Numbered from the stretch's first letter, positions 5,870 through 63,757 are shown. The stretch is 64,000 nt of DNA from Candidatus Nomurabacteria bacterium (GCA_943356675.1 CALRFQ010000001.1:4147-68146); one strand, 5' to 3'. Notes: generated from the sequence alone by a model not told the origin. Translations and numbers: made by a program.

Positions 5870-6796
5870 TTAACTTACACTTGCCATACCGGCACTAATT
5901 TCTGATATCTCCTGCGTGATCGACGCTTGGCGGGCTTTGTTGAATGCTAAGGTGAGGTCGTCTATCATTTCTCCTGCGGCTTCCGAGGCGTTCTTCATGG
6001 CTACCATTCGGGACGATTGTTCAGAAGCATTTGATTCAAGGAGCATTTGATAAATCTGCATTCGGGATAATTTCTCAGCTAAGCTTCCGATGAGTGCCTC
6101 TTGGTCGCCTTCGAAGGTGTAATCCGTTTTCCCTCTCTGGATAGAGGTCGAACCTCTATCTTCAGATAGAGGTTCGACCTCTATCTCTTCCACCAATTCT
6201 TTAATTTGCTCTTTTGATATTGGTAGGATTTGTTTGATATTTGGCTTTTGTGATAGAGCGGAAACGAAGTCGGTGTATGCTATTAAAATTTTATCGTATT
6301 TATTTTCTTTGTATTGGTCTACTACGAATTTCGATATCGGGACCACATCATTTAGATTTATATTGTCCGGCAATTCGGTGAATGTAGCAATGATATTCTT
6401 CCCTATTCTTCTCATTGCTGTGTCACCTTTCTTTCCGACTGTGACAAAATCAATTTTTGCATTATTTAAATTTACATCTGATGTTTTAAGGAGTGCCAAA
6501 ACCTTTTTTGTTACTTGCGCATTGTATGCTCCACAAAGTCCGCGGTTTGAAGTGATGAGGACAAGGAGCACATTTTTTACTTCGCGTTGAACGAATAGTG
6601 GATGTGTAATTTCCTGTGTACTATTTGCAATAGAAGTAAGAATCTCCCAAGAGTATCCAGCATATAGGCGGGATGCAAGTGTGGAAGAAACCGCGCGCTT
6701 CATCTTGGAAGCCGCCACGAGCTCCATAGCTTTCGTGATCTTTTTCGTGTTCTTCACACTCTTTATTCTTCTTTTGATTTCTTTTGTTCCTGCCAT
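5870..6796 (-). CDS. atpG: F0F1 ATP synthase gamma subunit (contains in-frame palindromic insertion)
   Basis: 308 aa; MAGTKEIKRRIKSVKNTKKITKAMELVAASKMKRA N-terminus and C-terminal SRMVAMKNASEAAGEMIDDLTLAFNKARQASITQEISEI. Confidence 0.9.
   Translation of the reverse strand: MAGTKEIKRRIKSVKNTKKITKAMELVAASKMKRAVSSTLASRLYAGYSWEILTSIANSTQEITHPLFVQREVKNVLLVLITSNRGLCGAYNAQVTKKVLALLKTSDVNLNNAKIDFVTVGKKGDTAMRRIGKNIIATFTELPDNINLNDVVPISKFVVDQYKENKYDKILIAYTDFVSALSQKPNIKQILPISKEQIKELVEEIEVEPLSEDRGSTSIQRGKTDYTFEGDQEALIGSLAEKLSRMQIYQMLLESNASEQSSRMVAMKNASEAAGEMIDDLTLAFNKARQASITQEISEISAGMASVS
6140..6185. repeat. 46-bp perfect palindromic unit (21 nt, TTCA, reverse complement of the 21 nt) in-frame inside atpG
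   Basis: GATAGAGGTCGAACCTCTATC TTCA GATAGAGGTTCGACCTCTATC. Confidence 0.8.
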
Positions 6797-21571: not shown

Positions 21572-22448
21572 CTAGTTTGTAAAATGTTTTAAGTTCTAGG
21601 AGTGCGACTTCTGTTTGCTTATCTTTAGCGACTTTATCTGTCGGTCCAGATCCTGGAGGATTCCCATGCCAACGATAATCGTATTCAAATGGTGTGACAC
21701 CTTTACTTGCGATTGTGCGTGCAATGATACATGAAGGCTTGTCTGGAATAGCTTTTGCGCGGTTTATTGCATTGTTTATATCTTCTACATTGTGCCCATC
21801 TATTTCTTCTGCATGCCAGCCGAATTCCTCATACTTCTTCGCCATGTCACCAAGGGGGAGTACGTCTTCAGTATTTCCATCAATCTGGATATGGTTGCGG
21901 TCAACTATAGCAATTAAGTTTCCTAATTTTTCTTTACCAGCGAGGAGAACTGCTTCCCATATATTGCCTTCATCATGCTCACCGTCTCCCATCACGCAGT
22001 AGAAGAACTTGCCAGAATTTCTGCCATGATCCATATTCTCAGCGATAGCCATACCGACTGCTTGTGAGAGTCCAGAACCAAGTGGCCCTGAAGAAGTCTC
22101 TACCATTGGTAGGAATTCGCGGTGAGGGTGGCCTTGTAGTCTTGATCCTAATTTTCTGAGAGTTAATAGTTCTTCAACAGGAAAATATCCAGAGTGCGCC
22201 ATTGCAGCATACATAACAGGGCAAATGTGGCCTGCGGAAAGTATAAAGCGATCACGACCCTCCCAGAAAGGCTCCGATGGATTGTGATTTAATTGATGAA
22301 AATAAAGCACAGCAAATACATCTGCCATATCAAGCGGTCCGGCAGTGTGGCCACTCTTCGCCTCTGTAAGCATTTCAATGATACTGATGCGGATTTTTGT
22401 CGCTAGTAATTTGAGTGTTTTGATTTTTTCGTCTGTAAGATTTTCCAT
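21555..22448 (-). CDS. transketolase, N-terminal subunit (TPP-binding)
   Basis: 297 aa; GHxxxxL...GDG(E)xxEG TPP-binding motif (VMGDGEHDEGNIWEA). Confidence 0.85.
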   Translation of the reverse strand: MENLTDEKIKTLKLLATKIRISIIEMLTEAKSGHTAGPLDMADVFAVLYFHQLNHNPSEPFWEGRDRFILSAGHICPVMYAAMAHSGYFPVEELLTLRKLGSRLQGHPHREFLPMVETSSGPLGSGLSQAVGMAIAENMDHGRNSGKFFYCVMGDGEHDEGNIWEAVLLAGKEKLGNLIAIVDRNHIQIDGNTEDVLPLGDMAKKYEEFGWHAEEIDGHNVEDINNAINRAKAIPDKPSCIIARTIASKGVTPFEYDYRWHGNPPGSGPTDKVAKDKQTEVALLELKTFYKLVEEGK

Positions 22449-22557
22449 CCCGTTAGAAGCAGATCGCGATCACTCGCTTCTTACTTGTTAAGTTATTAAT
22501 ATTTATTATATTTGTTTTCATGTTGTTTAATTTCGCGATCGCGGCTTCTAACGGGAT
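22447..22557. repeat. 111-bp intercistronic inverted-repeat element, family A copy 1 (rpe / tkt)
   Basis: Terminal IRs ATCCCGTTAGAAGC (22447..22460) and GCTTCTAACGGGAT (22544..22557), AT-rich centre. One arm contains the rpe stop codon and the other ends in the AT of the tkt start codon. 46 nt are identical to copy 2. Confidence 0.8.
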
Positions 22558-23264
22558 AAATTTTGAAATTCGTGATAAGTTTCGACGATATCCTCACTTT
22601 TTAATAATGCGCTTCCGACTACGAGTTTCGATACTCCACTCTCTACTAATCTCGGGGCGGTCTCGGTGTTTACACTACCATCGACTGCTATAACTAAATC
22701 CGGATAATGTTCTTTAAGGTATGATATGTGCTGGAAAACTCTTTCATCAAATGGCTGACCTTGCACTCCAATCTTTGGTATTCCCATACATTGCACATAG
22801 TCTAAGTAAGGTAAGAGCGGTGCAAGTGTACTTATAGGTGTTGTTGTATTTATTGCTACTCCTATTTGTACTGTGTCGCGAATATATGGGTCAATGGCTT
22901 CTAGAAATTCCTTGAATTCTTCCAAATTATTTTCTTCTTCAATCTGAAATACTACACTTTTAGGTCCGAGTTTCAAGAATGTACTAAAGAATTTACTACC
23001 ATCCTTTACCATGAAGTGGAATTCGTAGTCAATTTCTTCCCAAAAAGGCATTCCCTCTTCTTCATTCAAAATTTTAAGGAAATTGTAGTCAGTTATGTTG
23101 CCTTCAGTATCAACTCCACTTGCGTAGGGCCAAGTTTTAGACGGGACGAATATACCATCACAAAAATCAATTTGTACCATCTTAGCTAATCCGAGAACAC
23201 TCTCCACATGGTCCTTCATTTCACCATAAGTCTTATCTAAGATTGCAGGTATTACATCAGTCAT
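22548..23264 (-). CDS. rpe: ribulose-phosphate 3-epimerase-like protein (with about 35-aa insertion)
   Basis: 238 aa; N-terminal VIPAILDK...QIDFCDGIFVP and C-terminal AVDGSVNTETAPRLVESGVSKLVVGSALLKSED resemble Rpe. Confidence 0.55.
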   Translation of the reverse strand: MTDVIPAILDKTYGEMKDHVESVLGLAKMVQIDFCDGIFVPSKTWPYASGVDTEGNITDYNFLKILNEEEGMPFWEEIDYEFHFMVKDGSKFFSTFLKLGPKSVVFQIEEENNLEEFKEFLEAIDPYIRDTVQIGVAINTTTPISTLAPLLPYLDYVQCMGIPKIGVQGQPFDERVFQHISYLKEHYPDLVIAVDGSVNTETAPRLVESGVSKLVVGSALLKSEDIVETYHEFQNLSR

Positions 23265-30657: not shown

Positions 30658-31210
30658 TGATATTATTTTCTTGATTTGTAATTGCTTTCTCGAGCTCTTC
30701 CACTACTTCTTTGTATTTAGGAAGCATGGTGATGTCGCTGACTCCCATAAATAGAAGTAAATCAATTGTAGGTGTGTATATAAATCTACGAGAGTCGGTA
30801 GCGTCTACCTTTTTATCAATTAATCCGCGTATGAGTAAGTTGCGGAGAATAAAACTAGAATTAACACCACGAATATAATCAATTTCATTTCTTGTTACTC
30901 CATTCTTATCAGGACCATTTTTATATAAAATAATTGAGAGTGTTTCAAGTGTTGCCTTCGATAATTCTTTAGTAATTTCATCTTTCCTCAATTTCTCAAG
31001 GAAAATACTTGCCTCTTTATTTGTGCCTAGAGTTACTTCGTTCTCAGTTTTAATTATTGTAAGACCCGTGCCTTCCTTCTTGGTACTAAGTGTATCAAGA
31101 GAAGCTACTACTTCTTCAATACTTACTTCCAAAATCTCTGCAATCTTTTTGATTGCAACTGGTTCACCTTTAAAGAAAAGTAATGCTTCAATTTTTGCGT
31201 CTAGTTCCAT
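30650..31210 (-). CDS. scpB: segregation and condensation protein B
   Basis: 186 aa; tandem winged-helix pattern, ALLFFKGEPVAIKKIAE. Confidence 0.8.
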   Translation of the reverse strand: MELDAKIEALLFFKGEPVAIKKIAEILEVSIEEVVASLDTLSTKKEGTGLTIIKTENEVTLGTNKEASIFLEKLRKDEITKELSKATLETLSIILYKNGPDKNGVTRNEIDYIRGVNSSFILRNLLIRGLIDKKVDATDSRRFIYTPTIDLLLFMGVSDITMLPKYKEVVEELEKAITNQENNINE

Positions 31211-31319
31211 CCCGTTAGAAGCAGATCGCGATCACTCGCTTCTTACTTATTAAACTATTAATTTTAATTTTATAAATTTTCATCATGTGTGTTTACGTGA
31301 TCGTGGCTTCTAATGGGAT
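31209..31319. repeat. 111-bp intercistronic inverted-repeat element, family A copy 2 (scpA / scpB)
   Basis: ATCCCGTTAGAAGC at 31209..31222 and GCTTCTAATGGGAT at 31306..31319. Positions 31205..31250 are identical to 22443..22488. The distal arm lies inside the scpA 3' coding end. Confidence 0.8.
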
Positions 31320-32082
31320 CCATACCTGTCATATTAATATCTTCAAAATTACTATTTTGAACAACATCAATTATTCCCTCTCTGACTAATTCTAGCATAG
31401 CAAGGAATGAAACAATAACATTCACTCTAACTTCCCTCTCACTACTATCAGGGCTACTCATTGAAAAGTCCTTAAACGACATATTTAATGATTTTTGAAT
31501 TCTGTTTGTAAGACGGTCTATCATTTCCTCAATATTTATGACAGTTTTTACTTCTACTTCTGGCAGTGGTATAGCTTTCTTCGGTAAACTTATAAGTACA
31601 TCATTTATGGCATTACTTAGCGTCTCAACCGTCAGAATTTGGTCTGGGCTAAAGATTACATTGTCCCACTTTCGCTCTGGTGCTGAGAAAATTATTTTTG
31701 TACCGAAATTACTCTTGATATCAACGCTAGCATTTTTAATGATTTGATAGAGTCTTAGTCTTGATTCAAGATCTTCAATTTTATCTTCTTCATCGTCTGT
31801 GAGTTCTAGGTTTGGAAGTAGTGATTTGGATTTGATCAGTATGAGTGTTGCGGCGATAACAATAAAGTAAGATATGTCGTGAATTTTTTTGTCGATAGAA
31901 ACATCTTCGGAATTATTACTCTGAAGACTTTTAATATATGAAATATATTCACTTGTAACTTCAGCAAGAGAGATTTCGTTGACAAATAACTTCCTACTTT
32001 CGATGAGTGAGAGAAGCAGCTCAAGTGGCCCCTCGAATGAGCCAGACTTAACTTTATATGTTTGTATAGTATTCTCTTCCAT
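31270..32082 (-). CDS. scpA: segregation and condensation protein A
   Basis: 270 aa; FEGPLELLLSLI motif; C-terminal 16 aa are encoded by the repeat arm. Confidence 0.8.
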   Translation of the reverse strand: MEENTIQTYKVKSGSFEGPLELLLSLIESRKLFVNEISLAEVTSEYISYIKSLQSNNSEDVSIDKKIHDISYFIVIAATLILIKSKSLLPNLELTDDEEDKIEDLESRLRLYQIIKNASVDIKSNFGTKIIFSAPERKWDNVIFSPDQILTVETLSNAINDVLISLPKKAIPLPEVEVKTVINIEEMIDRLTNRIQKSLNMSFKDFSMSSPDSSEREVRVNVIVSFLAMLELVREGIIDVVQNSNFEDINMTGMDPIRSHDHVNTHDENL

Positions 32083-34709: not shown

Positions 34710-34745
34710 TTGCAAATTTGATCTCTGTGATACAATAGCCCTATG
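34710..34745 (+). promoter_or_regulatory. promoter TTGCAA-N15-TGATACAAT fused to the dnaB start (leaderless)
   Basis: TGaTACAAT-AGCCCT-ATG; the 6-nt spacer AGCCCT is identical to that of rsmI. Confidence 0.45.
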
Positions 34746-36161
34746 GCAAAAGATACACACACACCAATAAAGCAAAAAGTCGGAATGAGAATTCCTCCAC
34801 AAAGCTTGGATTCAGAGAAAGCAGTTCTCGGATCTATTATGCTTCGCCCAGGAGCACTCCACGAAATTACAGACGTGCTAAATCATGAAGGATTTTATGC
34901 TGGTAAACACAGAGAAATATTTAAAATAATGCTAGAGCTATCTAGTAAGGGTGAACCGATTGACTTACTCTCACTATCTCAGCGTTTATCTGAGCGCGGA
35001 ATGCTTGAATCTGTGGGCGGCACTGTTTATCTCACTGAGCTCGTTTCTTCTGTGCCTGCTTCAACAAACATTCGTCACTACGCAGACATAGTCGAGAAGA
35101 AAAATATTTTAAGAAATATTATTGATGCTGGCGGAGATATATCTGAACTCGGATTTAATGAAGACGTAGAAGATGTGTACGAAGTACTTGATCAAGCAGA
35201 AAAAAGAATGATGAATATTGGTAATCCTTCTCGAGGAAAGGCCTTCGTAGCACTTAAGGACACTCTTCCTGAAGCTTGGGAGCGACTAGAGAGACTACAT
35301 GAGACTAAAGGTGAACTTCGCGGTGTTCCTACTGGTTTTCGAGATTTAGATCAATATCTCTCTGGTATGCAAAAGTCTGATTTAATAATTCTTGCTGCTC
35401 GTCCATCTATGGGTAAAACTACTCTTGCTCTTGATATCGCTCGCCAAGCAGCGACAAAGCACAACATACCTGTAGTTATATTCTCACTTGAAATGAGTTC
35501 ACAACAGCTTGTGGATAGAATGCTTGCAGCTGAGGCACGCGTGAATGCATGGAATCTGCGTACTGGAAACTTATCAGCAGAAAGCGAGTTCTCAAAAATT
35601 CGCGATTCTCTAGATAGGCTCGCAAAGGCTCCGATATTTATTGATGACCAAGCTGGAAACTCTATTGTGAAAATGCGTTCCGTGTGCCGAAGAATCAAGG
35701 CGGAGCATGGTATAGGACTCATTATTGTGGACTACTTACAGCTTATGTCGACTTCCAAGAATTATGACTCTATGGTGAACCAAGTTACAGAAATTTCTCG
35801 TTCACTCAAAGGTCTTGCAAAGGAGTTTGATGTGCCAGTCATTGCACTATCACAGCTATCTCGTGCCGTGGAAGCTCGTGGAGGACGCCCAAGACTATCT
35901 GACCTACGTGACTCAGGATCTATCGAGCAGGATGCGGACGTAGTTATGTTTATCCACCGTGAAGATAAGGGTAAGGATGAATCAGAGAGGACAAATATTG
36001 CAGAAATACTTATTGAAAAGCACAGAAATGGACCAGTCGGAAAGGTGGATCTATTCTTCGATGAGAAGATGACAACATTCGTGACTATTGAGAAAGGAAA
36101 TTCTGATGGATTCCAAGCTCTCGCGAATTCTTCTTCAGGTACAAATATTGATCAATTTTAA
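34743..36161 (+). CDS. dnaB: replicative DNA helicase
   Basis: 472 aa; Walker A GARPSMGKTT, DnaB N-terminal domain. Confidence 0.9.
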   Translation: MAKDTHTPIKQKVGMRIPPQSLDSEKAVLGSIMLRPGALHEITDVLNHEGFYAGKHREIFKIMLELSSKGEPIDLLSLSQRLSERGMLESVGGTVYLTELVSSVPASTNIRHYADIVEKKNILRNIIDAGGDISELGFNEDVEDVYEVLDQAEKRMMNIGNPSRGKAFVALKDTLPEAWERLERLHETKGELRGVPTGFRDLDQYLSGMQKSDLIILAARPSMGKTTLALDIARQAATKHNIPVVIFSLEMSSQQLVDRMLAAEARVNAWNLRTGNLSAESEFSKIRDSLDRLAKAPIFIDDQAGNSIVKMRSVCRRIKAEHGIGLIIVDYLQLMSTSKNYDSMVNQVTEISRSLKGLAKEFDVPVIALSQLSRAVEARGGRPRLSDLRDSGSIEQDADVVMFIHREDKGKDESERTNIAEILIEKHRNGPVGKVDLFFDEKMTTFVTIEKGNSDGFQALANSSSGTNIDQF

Positions 36162-36168
36162 TTATGGC

Positions 36169-36287
36169 TCCCGTTAGAGATGTGCTGTTCATATGTTTGT
36201 TAAATGTTAAATATAGATTATAGTGTATATATTAATTATTAGTTAATAAGAAACGGAAGTCTAAAGACTTCCTATCTCTAACGGGAT
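36169..36287. repeat. 119-bp intercistronic inverted-repeat element, family A copy 3 (dnaB / recR)
   Basis: TCCCGTTAGAGAT at 36169..36181 and ATCTCTAACGGGAT at 36274..36287 ending in the AT of the recR ATG. Inner hairpin GGAAGTC-TAAA-GACTTCC. Interior carries TTGTTA-N16-TATAGT. Confidence 0.8.
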
Positions 36288-36906
36288 GGACCCGATAAAT
36301 ATTCTCGCAGAAAAATTTAAGGAATTCCCAGGTATTGGTGAACGCCAAGCAAAGCGTTTCGTGTATTTTCTGCTTCATAAAAATCCTAGCTTCGTAAAAA
36401 TACTCGGCGAGGCAATCATTTCTATTAAAAGCCAGATTGCCGAGTGTGAATCTTGCCACATATTCTTTCAAATAAAACCTCATCAGGATAAGCTCTGTGA
36501 GACTTGCGCAAATCCTCAAACTGATCAATCTTCCCTACTTATCGTCGAGAAGGATGCAGATATGGAGACCATAAAGCGCACGAAGACATATAAAGGATTA
36601 TATTTTGTACTTGGTGGTCTTGTACCTATAGTGACTAAGGATACTCCTACTTTTGTTCGCACAAACGAACTTCAAGCTGTTGTAAAAGACCGTATTAAGA
36701 ATAAAGTTCTAAAGGAAATTATATTAGGTCTTTCTATTAATCCTCACGGTGAACATACAGATTTATATCTACGTGAATTACTCCACCCACTTATAGAAAA
36801 CACAAATGTTAGAATTGTATCTTTAGGTAAAGGCCTCTCCACAGGCACTGAGCTCGAATACTCCGACTCCGAAACTATCAAAAACGCTCTCAAAAACCGC
36901 GGCTAA
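36286..36906 (+). CDS. recR: recombination protein RecR
   Basis: 206 aa; HhH FPGIGERQAKR, C4 zinc finger CESCH...CETC, Toprim LIVEKDADME. Confidence 0.85.
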   Translation: MDPINILAEKFKEFPGIGERQAKRFVYFLLHKNPSFVKILGEAIISIKSQIAECESCHIFFQIKPHQDKLCETCANPQTDQSSLLIVEKDADMETIKRTKTYKGLYFVLGGLVPIVTKDTPTFVRTNELQAVVKDRIKNKVLKEIILGLSINPHGEHTDLYLRELLHPLIENTNVRIVSLGKGLSTGTELEYSDSETIKNALKNRG

Positions 36907-36910
36907 TCCC

Positions 36911-36930
36911 CGCCTAGGTCGGACCTAGGC
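36911..36930. repeat. GC-rich palindromic hairpin CGCCTAGGTC-G-GACCTAGGC (family B copy 1) right after the recR stop
   Basis: 9-10-bp perfect arms; near-identical copy at 47446..47466. Confidence 0.7.
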
Positions 36931-43710: not shown

Positions 43711-44730
43711 TTAAGCTGAGTATTTTTCGATTAGTTTATTTGCTTCTGCGGGATTTGCTTTCATTTCAAGTAGTGCTGTGAGCATAAGAGGCACAACGAT
43801 TGTGGCATCGGACTCCACGACGAACATTGGAGTGTCTTTTGTGAGCTTGTCCCAAGTGATCTTTTCATTTGGAGTAGCACCTGAGTATGATCCGTATGAA
43901 GTAGTTGAGTCTGAAATCTGACAGAAGTATGCCCAAGGCTTAACTTCTTGCTCCATATCGTATTTAAGTGATGGCACTACGCATATTGGGAAGTCTCCAG
44001 CGATACCTCCACCGATTTGGAAGAAGCCAATTCCCTCTCCCTCAGAAAGCTTTTGGTATTGGTCATAAAATTCTCCCATGTATTCGATACCACTCTTTGC
44101 GATAGAAGCTGATGCATCTCCATGCTTTACGTGAGATGCGAAAATGTTTCCAAATGTTGAGTCTTCATATCCTGGAACTACTATTGGTATGTTGTTCTCA
44201 GCTGCAGCAAGTAGCCAGCATTCTTCTGCTTTACCTTCATGCTTATCTTTATCGATAGCTTGAATCAAGTCATAGAAGTACTCATGCCAGAATTTGCGAG
44301 TGCCATTCTTTGTAGCTTCTTCCCAAACTGGCACAATGTGTTTCTCCACAGCGCGGAAAGCTTCATCTTCAGGGATACTTGTGTCTGTAACGCGGCGCAT
44401 ACGATTCTCGAGTATCTTTGTGTCATCCTCTTTTGTGAAGTATCTGTAATCTGGAAAATCTTTGTATGAATCATGAGCAACGAGGCGGAAAAGTGATTCC
44501 TCAAGGTTCGCACCTGTGACAGACATACCACTGATAAGTCCTGCGCGGATAGCTGGGGCAAGCACGATACCAAGCTGTGCAGAAGACATAGCTCCAGCTA
44601 CCGCCCAAAACATCTTGCCTCCTTTTTCTGCATGGCGCCAGTAAGCGATAAGCGCATCGCGAGTAGCACGAGCATTGAAGTTCTTGTAATTTTTTAATAT
44701 AAATTCTAATGTGTTTAAATTATTTTGCAT
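43711..44730 (-). CDS. deoxyhypusine synthase-like protein (possible homospermidine/spermidine-forming aminobutyl transferase)
   Basis: 339 aa; N-terminal Rossmann region MFWAVAGAMSSAQLG...MSVTGANLEESLF aligns with the DHS-family TSNLISSGLR...VTTAGGVEED. Confidence 0.65.
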   Translation of the reverse strand: MQNNLNTLEFILKNYKNFNARATRDALIAYWRHAEKGGKMFWAVAGAMSSAQLGIVLAPAIRAGLISGMSVTGANLEESLFRLVAHDSYKDFPDYRYFTKEDDTKILENRMRRVTDTSIPEDEAFRAVEKHIVPVWEEATKNGTRKFWHEYFYDLIQAIDKDKHEGKAEECWLLAAAENNIPIVVPGYEDSTFGNIFASHVKHGDASASIAKSGIEYMGEFYDQYQKLSEGEGIGFFQIGGGIAGDFPICVVPSLKYDMEQEVKPWAYFCQISDSTTSYGSYSGATPNEKITWDKLTKDTPMFVVESDATIVVPLMLTALLEMKANPAEANKLIEKYSA

Positions 44731-44833
44731 CCCGTGTGAAATTTATTAATTAAGTAATATTGTAATTATAGCGTAATTTAACTTTTTGTACATTCCAAAT
44801 AGATTTATAGTTATTATAAATTTCTATCGGGAT
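44729..44833. repeat. 105-bp intercistronic inverted-repeat element, degenerate family A copy 4 (decarboxylase / DHS-like)
   Basis: ATCCCGTGTGAAATTTAT (44729..44746) and ATAAATTTCTATCGGGAT (44816..44833). One arm starts with the AT of the DHS-like ATG and the other ends at the decarboxylase stop codon. Confidence 0.6.
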
Positions 44834-46212
44834 TACCAGCCGAAGTTCTTACCCACCTCATCTGGAGTTTCTCTCTTACGTGCTACTACGATGTGTCCAT
44901 TCTCAGCCACGATCTTAAGTGGTGAAGAAAGCATACAGTGGTGTGCAGCGAGTGGGTCTTGGTATGCACCAGTATCGAGCACAGCTATATACATAGGCTC
45001 TCCATCATTCATATCGTAGTCTGGAAGTGTTACAGAGCCATGCACTCCTGTATAAATATCATCAGAATCACAAGATGACCCTGCTAGCCAAACATCCTGT
45101 AATTTATCATCGCGCTTATTATTTAGTGGAATCACAGACCATTTCTGCCCGATAGCCCAAGTATCGAGAAGGTCATTCATGAAGCTACCATCTATCACAT
45201 ACCACTTCTTGGCGTCAGCCTTTTTGCTTGAGATAAGTTTACTATCAATAATTTTAAAGATTGTGATTTGCGCTGGTGCTACTATGTAGCGGCCCCACTC
45301 ACACACGAGGTTTGGATGTGGCATTCCGCGCTTCTCAGACTCCTTCACAATAAGTGTGAAAATCTTATCCATCAATTTATCCACTGGGTAGCTACGATTG
45401 CGAGTGTAAGGGATAGGCATTCCTCCACCAATGTCGAGAGTATCAAGAGATGGATTCTTTTCTTTCACCTTGAAGTACACATCGAGTGCGTATTTTATCG
45501 GGCCGATCACATCAGAAAGCTTCTCAATCTGAGAGCCTATGTGGTAGTGAATTATTTTCAAATTCTTAAAGCTTCCCATATCAATGATCTCCTTTGCAGA
45601 AAATCCGAAGCGGTCTATCGGCTTGTTCCAGTACGAAGCAGCCTTCACTGGCATGTCTAGGCGGATACCCACATCATACTTTGAGTGCTGAAGGAATTTG
45701 AGCTCATTTGGGCCTTCAATAAGTGGGAAGATTTTCACACCTTTGTGCTGTAGATCGTCGATGAGGTTTATGTATTTGTCTGTCTTAGGACCTGAGCAGA
45801 GTATGCGGATGTTTGGGTTGAAAGATTCTTGCTCAAGCATCTTCTTCACGAGCCAGAGGTCGTTGAAAGATGAAGTCTCGAGATGAGCACCTTCAGATAC
45901 CATAGCCATAACCACTTCTTTATTTTGGTTCACCTTCATTGGGTAGTGGTAGAAGAACTTACCTTTATAACCTACTTTCTTTGAAAGTTGGAATGACAAG
46001 TCTAGGAAGTCCTCAATTCTTTCCTCAATAATGAATGGAAAAAGGATCTCAAGAGATGTGCCCATCTTCTCAGCTAAATAACGAATGTTGTAAATATTAT
46101 TTCCTTCTTTTACTACAAGGTCACCGTCTTTATTAAAGTCGAAATATTGTGTATTCCAATCTTTAGATCCGAGCTTCCATAATTTTCGGGAAGCAGATAC
46201 ATTTTTGTGCAT
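44833..46212 (-). CDS. PLP-dependent Orn/Lys/Arg decarboxylase (fold III), likely arginine decarboxylase
   Basis: 459 aa; HIGSQ and GGG-loop motifs; neighbour of agmatinase. Confidence 0.65.
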   Translation of the reverse strand: MHKNVSASRKLWKLGSKDWNTQYFDFNKDGDLVVKEGNNIYNIRYLAEKMGTSLEILFPFIIEERIEDFLDLSFQLSKKVGYKGKFFYHYPMKVNQNKEVVMAMVSEGAHLETSSFNDLWLVKKMLEQESFNPNIRILCSGPKTDKYINLIDDLQHKGVKIFPLIEGPNELKFLQHSKYDVGIRLDMPVKAASYWNKPIDRFGFSAKEIIDMGSFKNLKIIHYHIGSQIEKLSDVIGPIKYALDVYFKVKEKNPSLDTLDIGGGMPIPYTRNRSYPVDKLMDKIFTLIVKESEKRGMPHPNLVCEWGRYIVAPAQITIFKIIDSKLISSKKADAKKWYVIDGSFMNDLLDTWAIGQKWSVIPLNNKRDDKLQDVWLAGSSCDSDDIYTGVHGSVTLPDYDMNDGEPMYIAVLDTGAYQDPLAAHHCMLSSPLKIVAENGHIVVARKRETPDEVGKNFGW

Positions 46213-47348: not shown

Positions 47349-47445
47349 AAATATATTGGTTTTTGATTTTAGAACTATAATATACTATTCTCACCAAAAC
47401 ACAATATGTGGATAAAGTAAAACACCCTTTCGGGTGCCTTATCTC

Positions 47446-47466
47446 CGCCTAGGTCGGACCTAGGCG
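47446..47466. repeat. GC-rich palindromic hairpin CGCCTAGGTC-G-GACCTAGGCG (family B copy 2) right after the dnaJ stop
   Basis: Perfect 10-bp arms; followed on the minus strand by a GCACCC-GAAA-GGGTG-TTTT terminator (47411..47436). Confidence 0.7.
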
Positions 47467-47467
47467 C

Positions 47468-48586
47468 TTATATTCCCTCTTTTTTAAGATCTTCGAGGAG
47501 TTCTTTTGATTTCTTTGAGAGCTTCGTTGGCATCTTTATTTGGATGCGGAGAATGATGTCGCCACGGCGAGACATACTGCCACCTTGAGGCACGCCTTTG
47601 CCTCGCACACGTAGGAGCTCACCATGATTCACACCTTCAGGGATTGTGACGTCCATATCACCATCAAGAGTCTTCAGTTTATATTCAAAACCGAGGATTG
47701 CATCTGTGAGCTTGATCGGCAAATCCATAATCAAGTTTGAACCATCGCGTCTGTAAATTGAATGCGGCTTCACATTTACTTTTATGTATAGGTCGCCAGT
47801 TTGGCCATGAGAGATTGCTTCACCTTTGCCAGTCATTCTTATCATCTCGCCATTATTTATGCCTGCTGGGATTGCGATGCTAATGTCTTCCTGCTTATTG
47901 TGCACGCCTTTGCCTTTACACTCACTGCATTTCTCATTTGGAATTTTCCCTGCGCCGTGACAATGCTCACACACACGAGCAGTTTCGAACGTGCCGAGGA
48001 TTGAACGCTTCATCTCACGCACCTGGCCTTTTCCATTACAAGTTTTGCAAGTGTCCATCTTGGTGCCAGCTTTCGCTCCGCTACCACTACAAGTATCGCA
48101 TGTGGACTGCTTACTAATGAGCACAGAGCGCTTCACGCCGAAAATTGACTCCTCAAAGGAAATATCTATCTCTGTAGAAATATCGCGTCCACGGGCCTGC
48201 TGGCTTCTTCCACGGCCACCCATGCCTCCACCTCCGAAAAATTCTCCGAAGATATCGCCAATGTCGCCCATATCAAACTCCACTCCGCCTCCTTGCTGGA
48301 AGCCAGAGAAATCAAATCCTCCGAAGCCTCCTGCACCTTGATTGAATCCGCCGTATCCTTGACCTCCGCCCATATTTGGGCCGGCACTTCCGAATCTATC
48401 GTACTGAGCACGCTTGCCATCGTCCGATAGGGTCTGATAAGCCTCGTTCACTTCTTTGAACTTCGAATCATCACCCTTATTTTTATCAGGATGGTATTTA
48501 TGCGCGAGTTTATGATAGGCCTTTTTCATTTCGTCCTTACTCGCACCTTTATTTACACCCAATATTTCGTAGTAATCTTTTGCCAT
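47468..48586 (-). CDS. dnaJ: chaperone DnaJ
   Basis: 372 aa; J domain with HPD, G/F-rich linker, four CxxCxGxG repeats. Confidence 0.9.
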
Positions 48587-50972: not shown

Positions 50973-51536
50973 ATGTGTATGTCAAATAAGAGTGATAATT
51001 CTAAGAAAATCATTAAAATACTTAGCCAAAAGCCAGCTGTTGCAGTGAGTGAAATTACAAAGAGTCTGTCCCAGGAAATTGCGCAAGAACAGTTCTTGCG
51101 CCAAAGGAAGAATTCGTATGCAATAACTCGTTCAATAAAAGGCCTAGAAGAGGCAGGATTGATAGAGAATATATCATCAGGCCAAGGATTCTTCGCTCGC
51201 CTCACAAAGGAAGGCAAGAAAAAGGCTATGAGCATTAAGCTTGAGAGCGAGGATAGCCTCGTAAATACTACTTGGGACGGATACTGGCGTGTGATACTCC
51301 TAGACCTCCCAGAAAGTCGTAAGAGTGAGCGTGAATCTCTCCGCTACCTACTCAAGAAAGCCGGCTTCGTGTGCCTAAAGAATTCTGCATGGATCTCCCC
51401 TTACCCATTTGAGCACCTATTCACAAATATTAAAAAAGATCTCGGCCTTACAACCGAGCTTATGATACTAGTCACTCGCCATGTAGACGAAATGACGGAA
51501 TCTTCCCTCTTTGATCTCTTTGGATTTCATAAATAA
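50973..51536 (+). CDS. PaaX-family transcriptional regulator (wHTH + PaaX C-terminal domain)
   Basis: 187 aa; WDGYWRVILLDLPESRKSERESLRYLLKKAGFVCLKNSAWISP matches the PaaX-family core W.G.W..v.f..pe..r..R..lr..L...GF..l...vWv.P. Confidence 0.55.
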   Translation: MCMSNKSDNSKKIIKILSQKPAVAVSEITKSLSQEIAQEQFLRQRKNSYAITRSIKGLEEAGLIENISSGQGFFARLTKEGKKKAMSIKLESEDSLVNTTWDGYWRVILLDLPESRKSERESLRYLLKKAGFVCLKNSAWISPYPFEHLFTNIKKDLGLTTELMILVTRHVDEMTESSLFDLFGFHK

Positions 51537-63175: not shown

Positions 63176-63757
63176 ATGGGACGAGCTAATATACTATTTT
63201 CCATATTCCTATTCATTATCTTAATAATTGGCGCAAGAACAGTTCTTGCGCAAACTTATGATTCAAAATCATTTACAGGCACCTGGATACGAGTATCTAC
63301 CACTGGTTCCAAATTATATTTAATGAAAGATCAAAAAGTTGTTAGAACTTATCCTATTTCAATTTCTAAACACGGCATAGGTAACATTTCTGGCAGTAAT
63401 AAAACTCCACTTGGGTTACACGAGATTAAAAAGAAAATTGGTAGCAAATTACCAATCAATTCTATAATCAAGGGTGGTGTCTCAACTGGTAAGACTGCTA
63501 AAATTATAAGTGAACCGATATCAGTAAACACCGACTTAGTCACTACCAGAGTTATGTGGCTCTCAGGGCTTGAACCTGGAAAAAATAAAGGTGGAAAGGT
63601 AGATAGCTACAATCGCTTCATATACATTCACGGCACACCAGAAGAAGGCCTCATAGGCCAGCCAGCATCCCACGGTTGTATCCGAATGTACAACAAGGAT
63701 GTAATTGAACTCTTCAACCTCGTCTCTATAAATACAAAAGTTTTAATTGAAAAATAA
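63176..63757 (+). CDS. L,D-transpeptidase (YkuD domain) with signal peptide
   Basis: 193 aa; catalytic HGT...SHGCIRM motif. Confidence 0.75.
   Translation: MGRANILFSIFLFIILIIGARTVLAQTYDSKSFTGTWIRVSTTGSKLYLMKDQKVVRTYPISISKHGIGNISGSNKTPLGLHEIKKKIGSKLPINSIIKGGVSTGKTAKIISEPISVNTDLVTTRVMWLSGLEPGKNKGGKVDSYNRFIYIHGTPEEGLIGQPASHGCIRMYNKDVIELFNLVSINTKVLIEK

Follow-up and report, generated by a model that had tools for sequence, protein, structure and literature searches.

Correia elements carry 26-bp terminal inverted repeats (TIRs), a TA duplication, an IHF site and defined promoters, and they are found in one genus only. REP sequences and REPINs are hairpin doublets of ~100 nt with a conserved stem sequence and no transposase inside. 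The coupling of translation through the unmasking of a structured start is known from the coat and replicase genes of phage MS2 and from the "fold-back inhibition" of the IS10 transposase. As MITEs of Neisseria, the Correia (NEMIS) elements are inverted-repeat sequences of ~100-150 bp that are dispersed beside genes, are co-transcribed with them and can affect the expression of their neighbours (PMC10969869). ERIC/IRU, RUP and BOX are small transcribed palindromic repeats at gene borders, the orientation of which can alter mRNA fate (PMC10969869). The Rickettsia palindromic elements (RPE) are small palindromic mobile elements that persist in compact genomes, where their insertion keeps the host ORF usable (PMC10969869).

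The current report deals with a repeat located between the genes dnaB and recR in a 64,000-nucleotide stretch of DNA from a Candidatus Nomurabacteria bacterium, the whole of which is referred to here as the window. We assign a probability of about 0.8 to the reading that this repeat is a non-autonomous MITE-like transposable element belonging to a family that favours start codons. The MITE class is familiar; the landing site, the reconstruction of the ATG, the constraint on orientation and the spread across phyla appear to be new. No start-codon MITE and no description of this family were found in the literature on the arm sequence, on MITEs in connection with start codons, leaderless genes or Patescibacteria, and in the 2024 review of prokaryotic MITEs, a coverage that is incomplete. 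At the gathering level, Rfam 15 recognizes a tRNA alone in the window and nothing over the element; at permissive settings, the best matches over the element have E ~1 and 13-20 bits, against thresholds of 50-140.

The element at the dnaB-recR junction

The element, its parts and its neighbours are the following:

34743..36161, + strand: dnaB, the upstream gene, with a TAA stop at 36159-36161 and a leaderless-type promoter GATACAAT-N6-ATG
36164..36168, + strand: left target copy ATGGC, the original recR start codon plus 2 nt, its last base changed from A to C relative to the right copy
36164..36223, + strand: mini-ORF MAPVRDVLFICLLNVKYRL, 19 codons and a TAG stop (36221-36223), reading through the left arm
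36169..36286, + strand: the element, family copy 3, hairpin subtype, 118 bp, sense relative to recR
36169..36181, + strand: left terminal inverted repeat TCCCGTTAGAGAT, with TAG in one frame
36197..36224, + strand: promoter-like TTGTTA-N16-TATAGT, a 9/12 match, not above chance and not conserved in the family
36253..36272, + strand: subterminal module, conserved, AC plus a 7-bp hairpin and then T(A/G)Y
36255-36272, + strand: inner hairpin GGAAGTC-TAAA-GACTTCC, ending 14 nt short of the element end, with 5/7 pairs covarying
36274..36286, + strand: right terminal inverted repeat ATCTCTAACGGGA, the final A of which is the A of the recR ATG (36286-36288)
36287..36290, + strand: right target copy TGGA, a 4-bp duplication that rebuilds ATG-GA with the terminal A of the element
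36286..36906, + strand: recR, the downstream gene, its start supported by homologues beginning MDPI/MNPI

All the sequence features that an earlier note had described at this junction were recovered. The two arms are complementary at 13/13 positions, the right arm runs into the recR ATG by way of its last A (36286), and both the inner hairpin and the two promoter-like hexamers are present where they had been placed. A mini-ORF had also been ascribed to the element, starting at ATG 36164; the ORF exists, but its ATG lies outside the element and is the duplicated old start of recR. A TAA within the right arm (36279-36281) ends 4 nt before the recR ATG. As it stands, copy 3 makes up the entire leader of recR, with the right arm fused to the ATG, and the region folds as RNA with a predicted -41.8 kcal/mol (z = -5.5), a stability reached by 0/200 shuffles.

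Copies of the element in the window

Membership in a repeat family, as had been proposed, is borne out by four sites in the window, against 0-1 arm pairs of this kind in shuffled windows. The three copies other than copy 3 are:

22448..22556, - strand: copy 1, of the CGCGATC subtype, separates rpe from the gene for the transketolase N-subunit; the tkt ATG has its A at base 22448
31210..31318, - strand: copy 2, of the CGCGATC subtype, separates scpA from scpB and is flanked by ATGGA at either end; the scpB ATG has its A at base 31210
44730..44832, - strand: copy 4, degenerate, its arms matched at 11/14 positions; base 44730 is the A of the downstream ATG

The last base of the element is the A of the downstream gene's ATG in 4/4 window copies. 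All four also share one layout when read in the direction of the genes, with the end of the upstream gene followed by the TCCCGTTAGA arm, an AT-rich core, the subterminal module and TCTAACGGG-A. Copies 1 and 2 are 82% identical to each other, and copy 3 has the same orientation as these two relative to the genes, though it is best aligned to them as the reverse complement. Copy 4 is situated between a decarboxylase-like gene and the deoxyhypusine-synthase-like gene that follows it, and is adjoined at its other end by the TAA of the upstream gene. Small deletions have fused two of the elements to the genes that precede them. At copy 1, a loss of 12 nt removed the stop of rpe, which now ends at the left-arm TAG, and at copy 2 a loss of 25 nt removed the stop of scpA, which now reads 17 codons into the element. 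Beyond these two re-fusions, the left-arm TAG serves as the stop of the upstream gene in 8 other family members.

Empty sites and the history of the recR site

A relative with a 91% identical RecR (L121) has an exact empty site, AATTATGGACCCG, or in a longer reading ...GATCAATTTTAATTATGGACCCGATAAAT. The window reads AATT-ATGGC-(118 bp)-TGGACCCG at this position, i.e. ...AATTATGGC(TCCCG...118 bp...CGGGA)TGGACCCGAT, and it is from the comparison of the two that the start of recR is seen to have been duplicated. The duplication at copy 3 is imperfect, with TGGC on the left and TGGA on the right. In the empty-site relative, the recR ATG comes 2 nt after the dnaB TAA, as in an operon. The sites of the two CGCGATC-type copies are likewise empty in close relatives: scpA-scpB is uninterrupted in L207-L211, at ScpB identities of 96, 87, 85 and 76%, and rpe-tkt is uninterrupted in L212-L214, at 95, 82 and 79% identity. 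Taken with the target copies described above, such observations make it very likely that copy 3 is an insertion, apparently a recent one, of a mobile element that targets start codons.

Other relatives point to a dynamic history of the recR site. Three relatives at 83-85% identity (L122-L124) have an element of the other subfamily (CGCGATC type) at the same recR position, flanked by ATGGA at either end. In a set of 78 more distant relatives, the recR start is occupied by an intact element in 5 and by degenerate right-arm remnants, recognized by eye, in ~6, while the rest are empty. Hairpin-type elements at this site in relatives with 63-71% identical RecR are 65-74% identical to copy 3, which means that copy 3 could be old, with precise loss in L121. 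Precise loss can occur by slippage between short direct repeats that flank a palindrome, as in the excision of Tn10 and Tn5. Judging from these alignments, the recR site could be a hot spot that has been hit repeatedly, or could hold an old insertion that was precisely lost in the empty-site relative.

Distribution of the family and its start-codon rule

The first 10 nt of the left arm of copy 3 served as the exact-match query by which members were retrieved across phyla. The scan, of one genome per species with the pattern TCCCGTTAGA-N70-100-TCTAACGGGAT, gave at least 120 loci, of which ~4 are estimated to be chance matches. This pattern forced a T after one arm, with the consequence that insertions away from start codons are under-sampled about two-fold; the G, the left ATG and the equality of the NN were left free. 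Both 10-nt ends are matched exactly at these loci, and the terminal repeats (TCCCGTTAGA...TCTAACGGGA) often extend to 12-25 bp. Family members are 90-121 bp in length, with longest internal ORFs of at most 41 codons, and several contigs of one MAG carry copies. As labelled in the MAG records, the matches listed come from many Patescibacteria lineages (Paceibacterota, Nomura-, Kaiser-, Wolfe-, Yanofsky-, Harrison- and Moranbacteria, Saccharibacteria and others), Omnitrophota, Planctomycetota (Sedimentisphaerales), Elusimicrobia, WOR-3 and a few others. Viral contigs gave one match (L126), which likewise obeys the rule described below in the form ATGAA; the arm-pair scan of plasmid and phage collections gave AT-rich chance matches only.

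When the matches listed are combined with the window copies, 127/135 elements have the arrangement ATGNN-element-TGNN, scored as a TG after the right end or a CA before the left end. In the same set, the direct repeat ATGNN is perfect (5/5) in 83 elements and 4/5 in 14 more, and among the 127 the two flanks have 4 bp (TGNN) in common in 86 cases, while common stretches of 2, 3 and 5 bp were counted 6, 7 and 4 times. The right-hand ATG opens a long ORF in most cases, with a median of 227 codons that is a lower bound set by the length of the flanks. At three sites, the left copy reads GTG and the right copy ATG, from which it follows that the A is supplied by the element. Several of the 8 elements that do not adjoin an ATG carry other duplications (ATAAA, ACTGA, TTTA), an indication that the duplication is a real target duplication. 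The NN is purine-purine (ATG-RR) in 86% of the element sites, compared to 56% of the gene starts in the window (p = 2e-4). Besides any selection against insertions elsewhere, the family has an intrinsic preference for A|TGRR.

Orientation and the subterminal hairpin

The ends of these elements are symmetric and their interiors are asymmetric across the family. Among the matches listed plus the window copies, the end that bears the motif CCTRYYTCTAACGGGA is proximal to the gene in 48 elements and distal in 3. Copy 3 belongs to a subtype whose interior includes a 7-bp hairpin, with ACGG...CCT invariant, that is placed at one end only and at a distance of exactly 14 nt from the element end. Compensatory double changes occur at 5/7 of its pairs (36 cells, 0/500 shuffles); the set was selected for at least 6/7 pairs, which biases the percentage paired and leaves the covariation unaffected. 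An antisense terminator, for which the hairpin was flagged on the minus strand, was not supported, as other members with the hairpin do not conserve the T-run. Reversed orientation at apparent start codons was seen in 4/23 hairpin-type elements, L079 among them with a perfect duplication, so that both orientations can insert. The orientation bias looks like the result of selection on the effect that the interior has on the downstream gene.

Identity and mobilization of the element

Five of six features of MITEs were found for this family: a short length (well under 500 bp) with no transposase gene, terminal inverted repeats, a characteristic target duplication, dispersed copies and insertion polymorphism. 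As to the sixth, an autonomous partner, no arm pairs 0.5-3 kb apart were found in 120 loci of 8 kb (~1 Mb), and scans spanning up to 600 nt found no transposase or autonomous element with these ends in viral contigs or in plasmid and phage collections. Some of the orphan arms were traced to degenerate partners, to a solo remnant (L095) or to truncation at the end of a locus (L008). Perfect TIRs together with a duplication of 4 bp (3-5 bp) point to a DDE-type transposase acting in trans, and the most likely candidate for the mobilizing enzyme is one of this type that makes a 4-bp staggered cut.

Three other assignments were considered and set aside. The junctions do not agree with an IS1380-like element, which would have CC...GG ends and a duplication of 5 bp. 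A PATE or REPIN derived from IS200/IS605, which would have subterminal hairpins at both ends and a fixed short target on one side, is contradicted by the perfect TIRs, the duplicated variable NN and a hairpin at one end only. In an integron attC site, the order would be R''(RYYYAAC)-L''...L'-R'(GTTRRRY), with no duplicated target, whereas the arms here hold GTTAGA...TCTAAC, which is the opposite, and duplications are present.

We infer that the element is primarily selfish DNA, with ends and a choice of target that make the start codon a tolerated landing site. The family has apparently been active recently in bacteria that do without SD sequences.

Initiation of translation in the host

Among the genes of the window, an SD sequence is found in 2/50 and a -10-like box (TANNNT) lies 5-9 nt before the ATG in 26/50. 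The placement of this box and the near absence of SD sequences suggest that first genes have leaderless mRNAs and that the others are tightly coupled. The left ATGs at the family sites have a -10 box of the leaderless type in 37/91 cases, and 17 overlap an upstream TGA (ATGA). Targeting of open promoter complexes by the element was not supported by these figures, leaderless promoters being not enriched at the element sites (37/91, versus 26/50 window genes). Two further ideas about the right arm failed as well: a hidden SD, or pairing with the 1400 region of 16S rRNA, amounts to 6/8, includes a C.A mismatch and involves a region that is unavailable for pairing, and a -10 box that would recreate a leaderless start is limited to TATCTC, which is missing the final T.

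Alternative explanations

The earlier note had suggested that the element might act as a portable promoter and leader. Spelled out, this reading has a sigma-70-type TTGTTA-N16-TATAGT in the AT-rich core drive recR independently of dnaB, and the hairpin and right arm form a regulatory 5' leader. The element is indeed repeated, portable and a leader, but the promoter part of this proposal found no support, and we regard the whole as distinctly unlikely. Both hexamers are present in copy 3, the cores are more AT-rich than their hosts and often have TATAAT-like boxes, L032 and L043 have TATAAT-N9-ATG within the core, and the Correia elements are a precedent for MITEs that bear promoters (PMC10969869). 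Against this, the 9/12 match occurs at chance density (14 promoter-like sites in the 4-kb region versus 11 +/- 3.3 in shuffles), the opposite strand of the same copy has a site with a better score of 10/12, and -10-like hexamers are equally common in sense and antisense cores (92 versus 94, in 127 members), with no positional peak and no family conservation. A transcript that started near 36231 would have a structured, SD-less leader of ~55 nt in a host where genes are leaderless or coupled, and recR is placed in an operon by the 2-nt spacing in the empty-site relative. The strong fold (z = -5.5) might be taken to favour a different functional reading, in which the element is a domesticated cis-regulatory RNA (e.g. 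one that is cut by RNase III, that occludes the ATG in the manner of a thermometer or that has a hairpin bound by a protein), its ends and hairpin kept since the stem-loop regulates the downstream gene, and its mobility secondary or extinct. The covarying hairpin with its invariant flanking ACGG...CCT, the higher G-U count and stability of the sense strand, the 65-74% identical elements at the recR site of distant relatives and the 48:3 orientation bias are in keeping with such a role, though reversed copies with perfect duplications exist. We nevertheless consider it unlikely, given that the flanking genes are unrelated housekeeping genes (tkt, scpB, recR, deoxyhypusine-synthase-like) with no common regulon, that presence and absence differ among near-identical relatives, that there are target duplications at each site and that no Rfam family matches. 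The conserved bases are within the helix, moreover, which better fits the recognition of DNA ends by a protein than the catalytic or ligand core of an RNA.

If the family is mobile, its route might conceivably be through single strands, as for HUH/Y1 enzymes (IS200/IS605-PATE or REPIN/RAYT-like), where a folded single strand inserts 3' of a short target in a fixed orientation and excises precisely. The near-fixed orientation relative to an asymmetric target, the conservation of a subterminal hairpin whose distance from one end is fixed at 14 nt, the seamless empty sites and the ability of the whole element to fold back on itself are all features that such a route could account for. It is nonetheless highly improbable here, as families of that kind have neither target duplications nor long terminal inverted repeats, whereas in the present family the variable NN is duplicated (mostly as part of 4 bp, less often of 3 or 5 bp), the TIRs match perfectly for 10-25 bp, the hairpin is at one end only and reversed copies occur. 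That the arms are a chance inverted repeat in AT-rich intergenic DNA is scarcely credible: a 13-mer that is allowed up to 2 mismatches is not in itself unusual, and 11/100 shuffles reach 3 matches, but an arm pair with the same spacing is found at 4 sites in the window as opposed to 0-1 in shuffles, and recurs with the same ATG junction in at least 120 genome loci.

Proposed route to continued translation of recR

Returning to the insertion of a start-codon-targeting MITE, the question arises as to how a gene could tolerate it. The most likely answer is that recR would still be translated by coupling, in a manner that can be modelled as follows. The insertion landed directly after the ATGGA of recR, with duplication of 4 bp (TGGA). 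As the element starts with T and ends with A, the terminal A and the right-hand TG rebuild the recR ATG. The old ATG is retained upstream, where it now opens the 19-codon mini-ORF, and the native initiation context would still serve this left ATG after the insertion. Ribosomes leaving dnaB (TAA, 2 nt, ATG) would re-initiate there, in the frame NNT-CCC-GTT-AGA, which is the sole one to cross the left arm without a stop, avoiding its TAG. Given an insertion after ATGNN and this open frame, every insertion would yield a mini-ORF of at least 5 codons that must unwind the terminal stem. Translation of the mini-ORF would melt the 14-bp terminal stem that otherwise buries the recR ATG, after which ribosomes would reach recR by re-initiation or scanning. 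Many relatives have a short internal ORF, ending at the right-arm UAA 4 nt before the ATG, that would have this effect more directly. For this translational unmasking in particular, we would put the odds at close to even, or slightly below.

Several properties of the family fit the model, the re-fusion of upstream genes into the left arm, described above, among them. The predicted stem pairs the A of the real ATG and the preceding 10-25 nt. The sense frame that ends at the right-arm TAA is open for a mean of 20.4 codons, versus 9.8-15.9 in other frames or in antisense, and ATG-ORFs of at least 15 codons that end at this TAA are found in 37% of the elements versus 2-11% in controls. Copies 1 and 2 and the element of L124 keep an ORF of the form M K x N ... 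S K K R V I A I C F and stop despite many substitutions and an indel of 3 nt. G-U pairs are more frequent on the sense strand than on the antisense strand (404 versus 310), and the sense fold is 1.2 kcal/mol more stable (p = 0.009); ATGs number 211 in sense and 146 in antisense. Two observations speak against it. Counting any ORF that ends at the real ATG, there are 61 of 91 elements as they stand versus 49 of 91 with the element flipped, a difference that is not significant (p = 0.095), so that of the two ORF tests the more specific one, on the right-arm TAA frame, alone holds. Copy 3 itself has no relay ORF; between the end of its mini-ORF and the recR ATG lie 62 nt in which there is no other ATG.

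A broader proposal, which we offer tentatively and with the balance of probability against it, is that these are start-codon-homing elements adapted to SD-less genomes, the preference for A|TGRR and the T...A ends allowing them to use gene starts as safe harbours, and the interior having been selected as a translational relay. The parts of the relay would be the left-arm mini-ORF, the stem that masks the ATG, the subterminal hairpin and the short ORF ending UAA-N4-AUG. If true, this would explain both the 48:3 orientation bias and the spread across phyla, and it would mean that the elements rewire the coupling and the start codons (GTG to ATG) of housekeeping genes.

Implications

The family would represent a case of bacterial MITEs that land on the start codon itself and restore the ATG with their terminal base. 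Insertion of this kind would be a simple route to persistence for selfish DNA in tiny, gene-dense genomes, where other insertions are almost always lethal. It marks recent transposition in Patescibacteria lineages that were thought to be poor in mobile elements, and explains some of the contig breaks in MAGs. It also alters the annotation of gene starts, through mini-ORFs, changed C-termini of upstream genes and the conversion of GTG to ATG. The filled and empty alleles of the same gene would provide dozens of natural experiments per genome on initiation at an internal, structure-masked AUG in SD-less, leaderless bacteria, and a mobilizing enzyme that prefers A|TGRR would itself be interesting.

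Comparison with known systems

Among the described families, the Correia/NEMIS elements share with the present one a fold with a long stem, target duplications and presence/absence polymorphism between strains (for Correia: PMC10969869). Identity with them was rejected on the basis of the ends (TCCCGTTAGA), a duplication of TGNN rather than TA, and hosts that include Patescibacteria and other phyla as labelled in the MAG records. The Correia TIRs are of unrelated sequence and follow no start-codon rule, whereas the elements described here combine their characteristic ends and TGNN duplication with a rebuilt ATG, an orientation bias and an occurrence in several phyla. The ERIC/IRU, RUP and BOX repeats differ in having other ends and hosts, no exact junction with a start codon and no reconstruction of an ATG. 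RPE insert in frame within coding regions and add a segment of peptide, in contrast to the present family, which inserts at the start codon, leaves the protein unchanged and gives rise to a separate mini-ORF upstream. REPINs leave their target unduplicated, are mostly found behind genes and are linked to a RAYT gene present in single copy, whereas duplications and gene starts are the rule for the elements examined here.

The nearest likeness for the proposed coupling is with phage MS2 and IS10, where a long-range stem hides a start codon and upstream translation exposes it; the corresponding stem of the present elements is a predicted one. In MS2 and IS10, however, these are fixed features of one gene, whereas the device considered here would travel on a mobile element to many unrelated genes.

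A fourth family member and altered gene ends in the window

The window holds, besides the three copies inserted at the starts of tkt, scpB and recR, a degenerate fourth member of the element family:

44730-44832, minus strand, degenerate copy 4, with arms TCCCGATAGAAATT / AATTTCACACGGGA

This copy is flanked by genes for a decarboxylase-like protein (44833-46212) and a deoxyhypusine-synthase-like protein (43711-44730). As in the other copies of the window, its final base is the A of the downstream ATG, here that of the latter gene.

The ends of the upstream genes are altered beside copies 1 and 2. Comparison with the empty-site relatives L207 and L208 reveals that scpA has lost 25 nt of its 3' end, including the stop codon, beside copy 2 (window 31270-31345, minus strand). 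In the window, the ScpA reading frame crosses the duplicated ATGGA, enters the element and terminates as ...NMTGMDPIRSHDHVNTHDENL, whereas the protein of a 96%-identical relative ends in ...NMSQVDNNQTN. Beside copy 1, the 12 nt TAATTATATGGA, which comprise rpe's own stop and the left target copy, are absent from the window (22545-22560, minus strand) relative to the empty-site locus L212, and the TAG triplet inside the left arm is the present rpe stop (...NLSR*). This triplet likewise serves as the stop of the upstream gene in 8 further members of the family.

Several other palindromic repeats are found in the window. Two copies, 93% identical, of a small repeat containing the perfect 19-nt palindrome GCCTAGGTC-G-GACCTAGGC lie immediately 3' of stop codons, one (36903-36930) after recR and the other (47438-47465) after the minus-strand gene at 47468-48586. 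The palindromic repeat TTGCGCAAGAACAGTTCTTGCGC occurs twice, at 51076-51104 and 63226-63254, and positions 6140-6185 form a perfect palindrome of 22+22 nt (GATAGAGGTCGAACCTCTATCT/AGATAGAGGTTCGACCTCTATC).

Translation starts as insertion targets

The host organism is essentially Shine-Dalgarno-less. Among 50 long ORFs of the window, a Shine-Dalgarno-like motif precedes only 2, and a -10-like (TANNNT) box lies 5-9 nt 5' of the ATG in 26, as for example in dnaB (GATACAAT-agccct-ATG). This combination indicates that first genes are expressed from leaderless mRNAs and that internal genes are tightly coupled.

The native 5' coding sequence of recR (ATGAATCCAATAGAAAA / ATGGACCCGATAAAT in the relatives L127-L206) resembles the junction and left end of the element (ATGAATCCCGTTAGAAA). 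Among 78 relatives, the recR start is occupied by an element or its remnant, from two subfamilies, in at least 11. This start may be a hot spot for insertion through a preference for end-like targets. Two independent assemblies (L122 and L123, positions 1-25) end within the element, 25 nt 5' of recR, which suggests that this repeat family breaks up assemblies of Patescibacteria.

Variant junctions and repeated insertion

In five elements (L023, L048, L110, L111 and L116) the sequence (A)CTTG stands immediately 5' of TCCCG, in L111 between two tandem elements, and TG alone is common to the left and right flanks. The same is true of the flanks of L064, with its left junction of CCCTG. At such junctions the start codon could be TTG and the duplication 2 bp long, or the left end of the element could be a variant one.

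Tandem or closely spaced elements, within a few hundred bases, occur at the following loci:

L072, 5472-5711
L075, 6578-6909
L013, 7673-7800

Since every element in these loci bears its own ATGAA or ATGGA duplication, it appears that the ATGNN rebuilt by one element can be targeted by a second insertion. The single match among viral contigs (IMG/VR), at 3735-3828 of L126, is flanked on both sides by ATGAA, contains nested arm-like copies (CCCTGTTAGAGG...CCTCTAACAGGG) in its interior, and has AAGGAGG 11 nt 5' of the rebuilt ATG.
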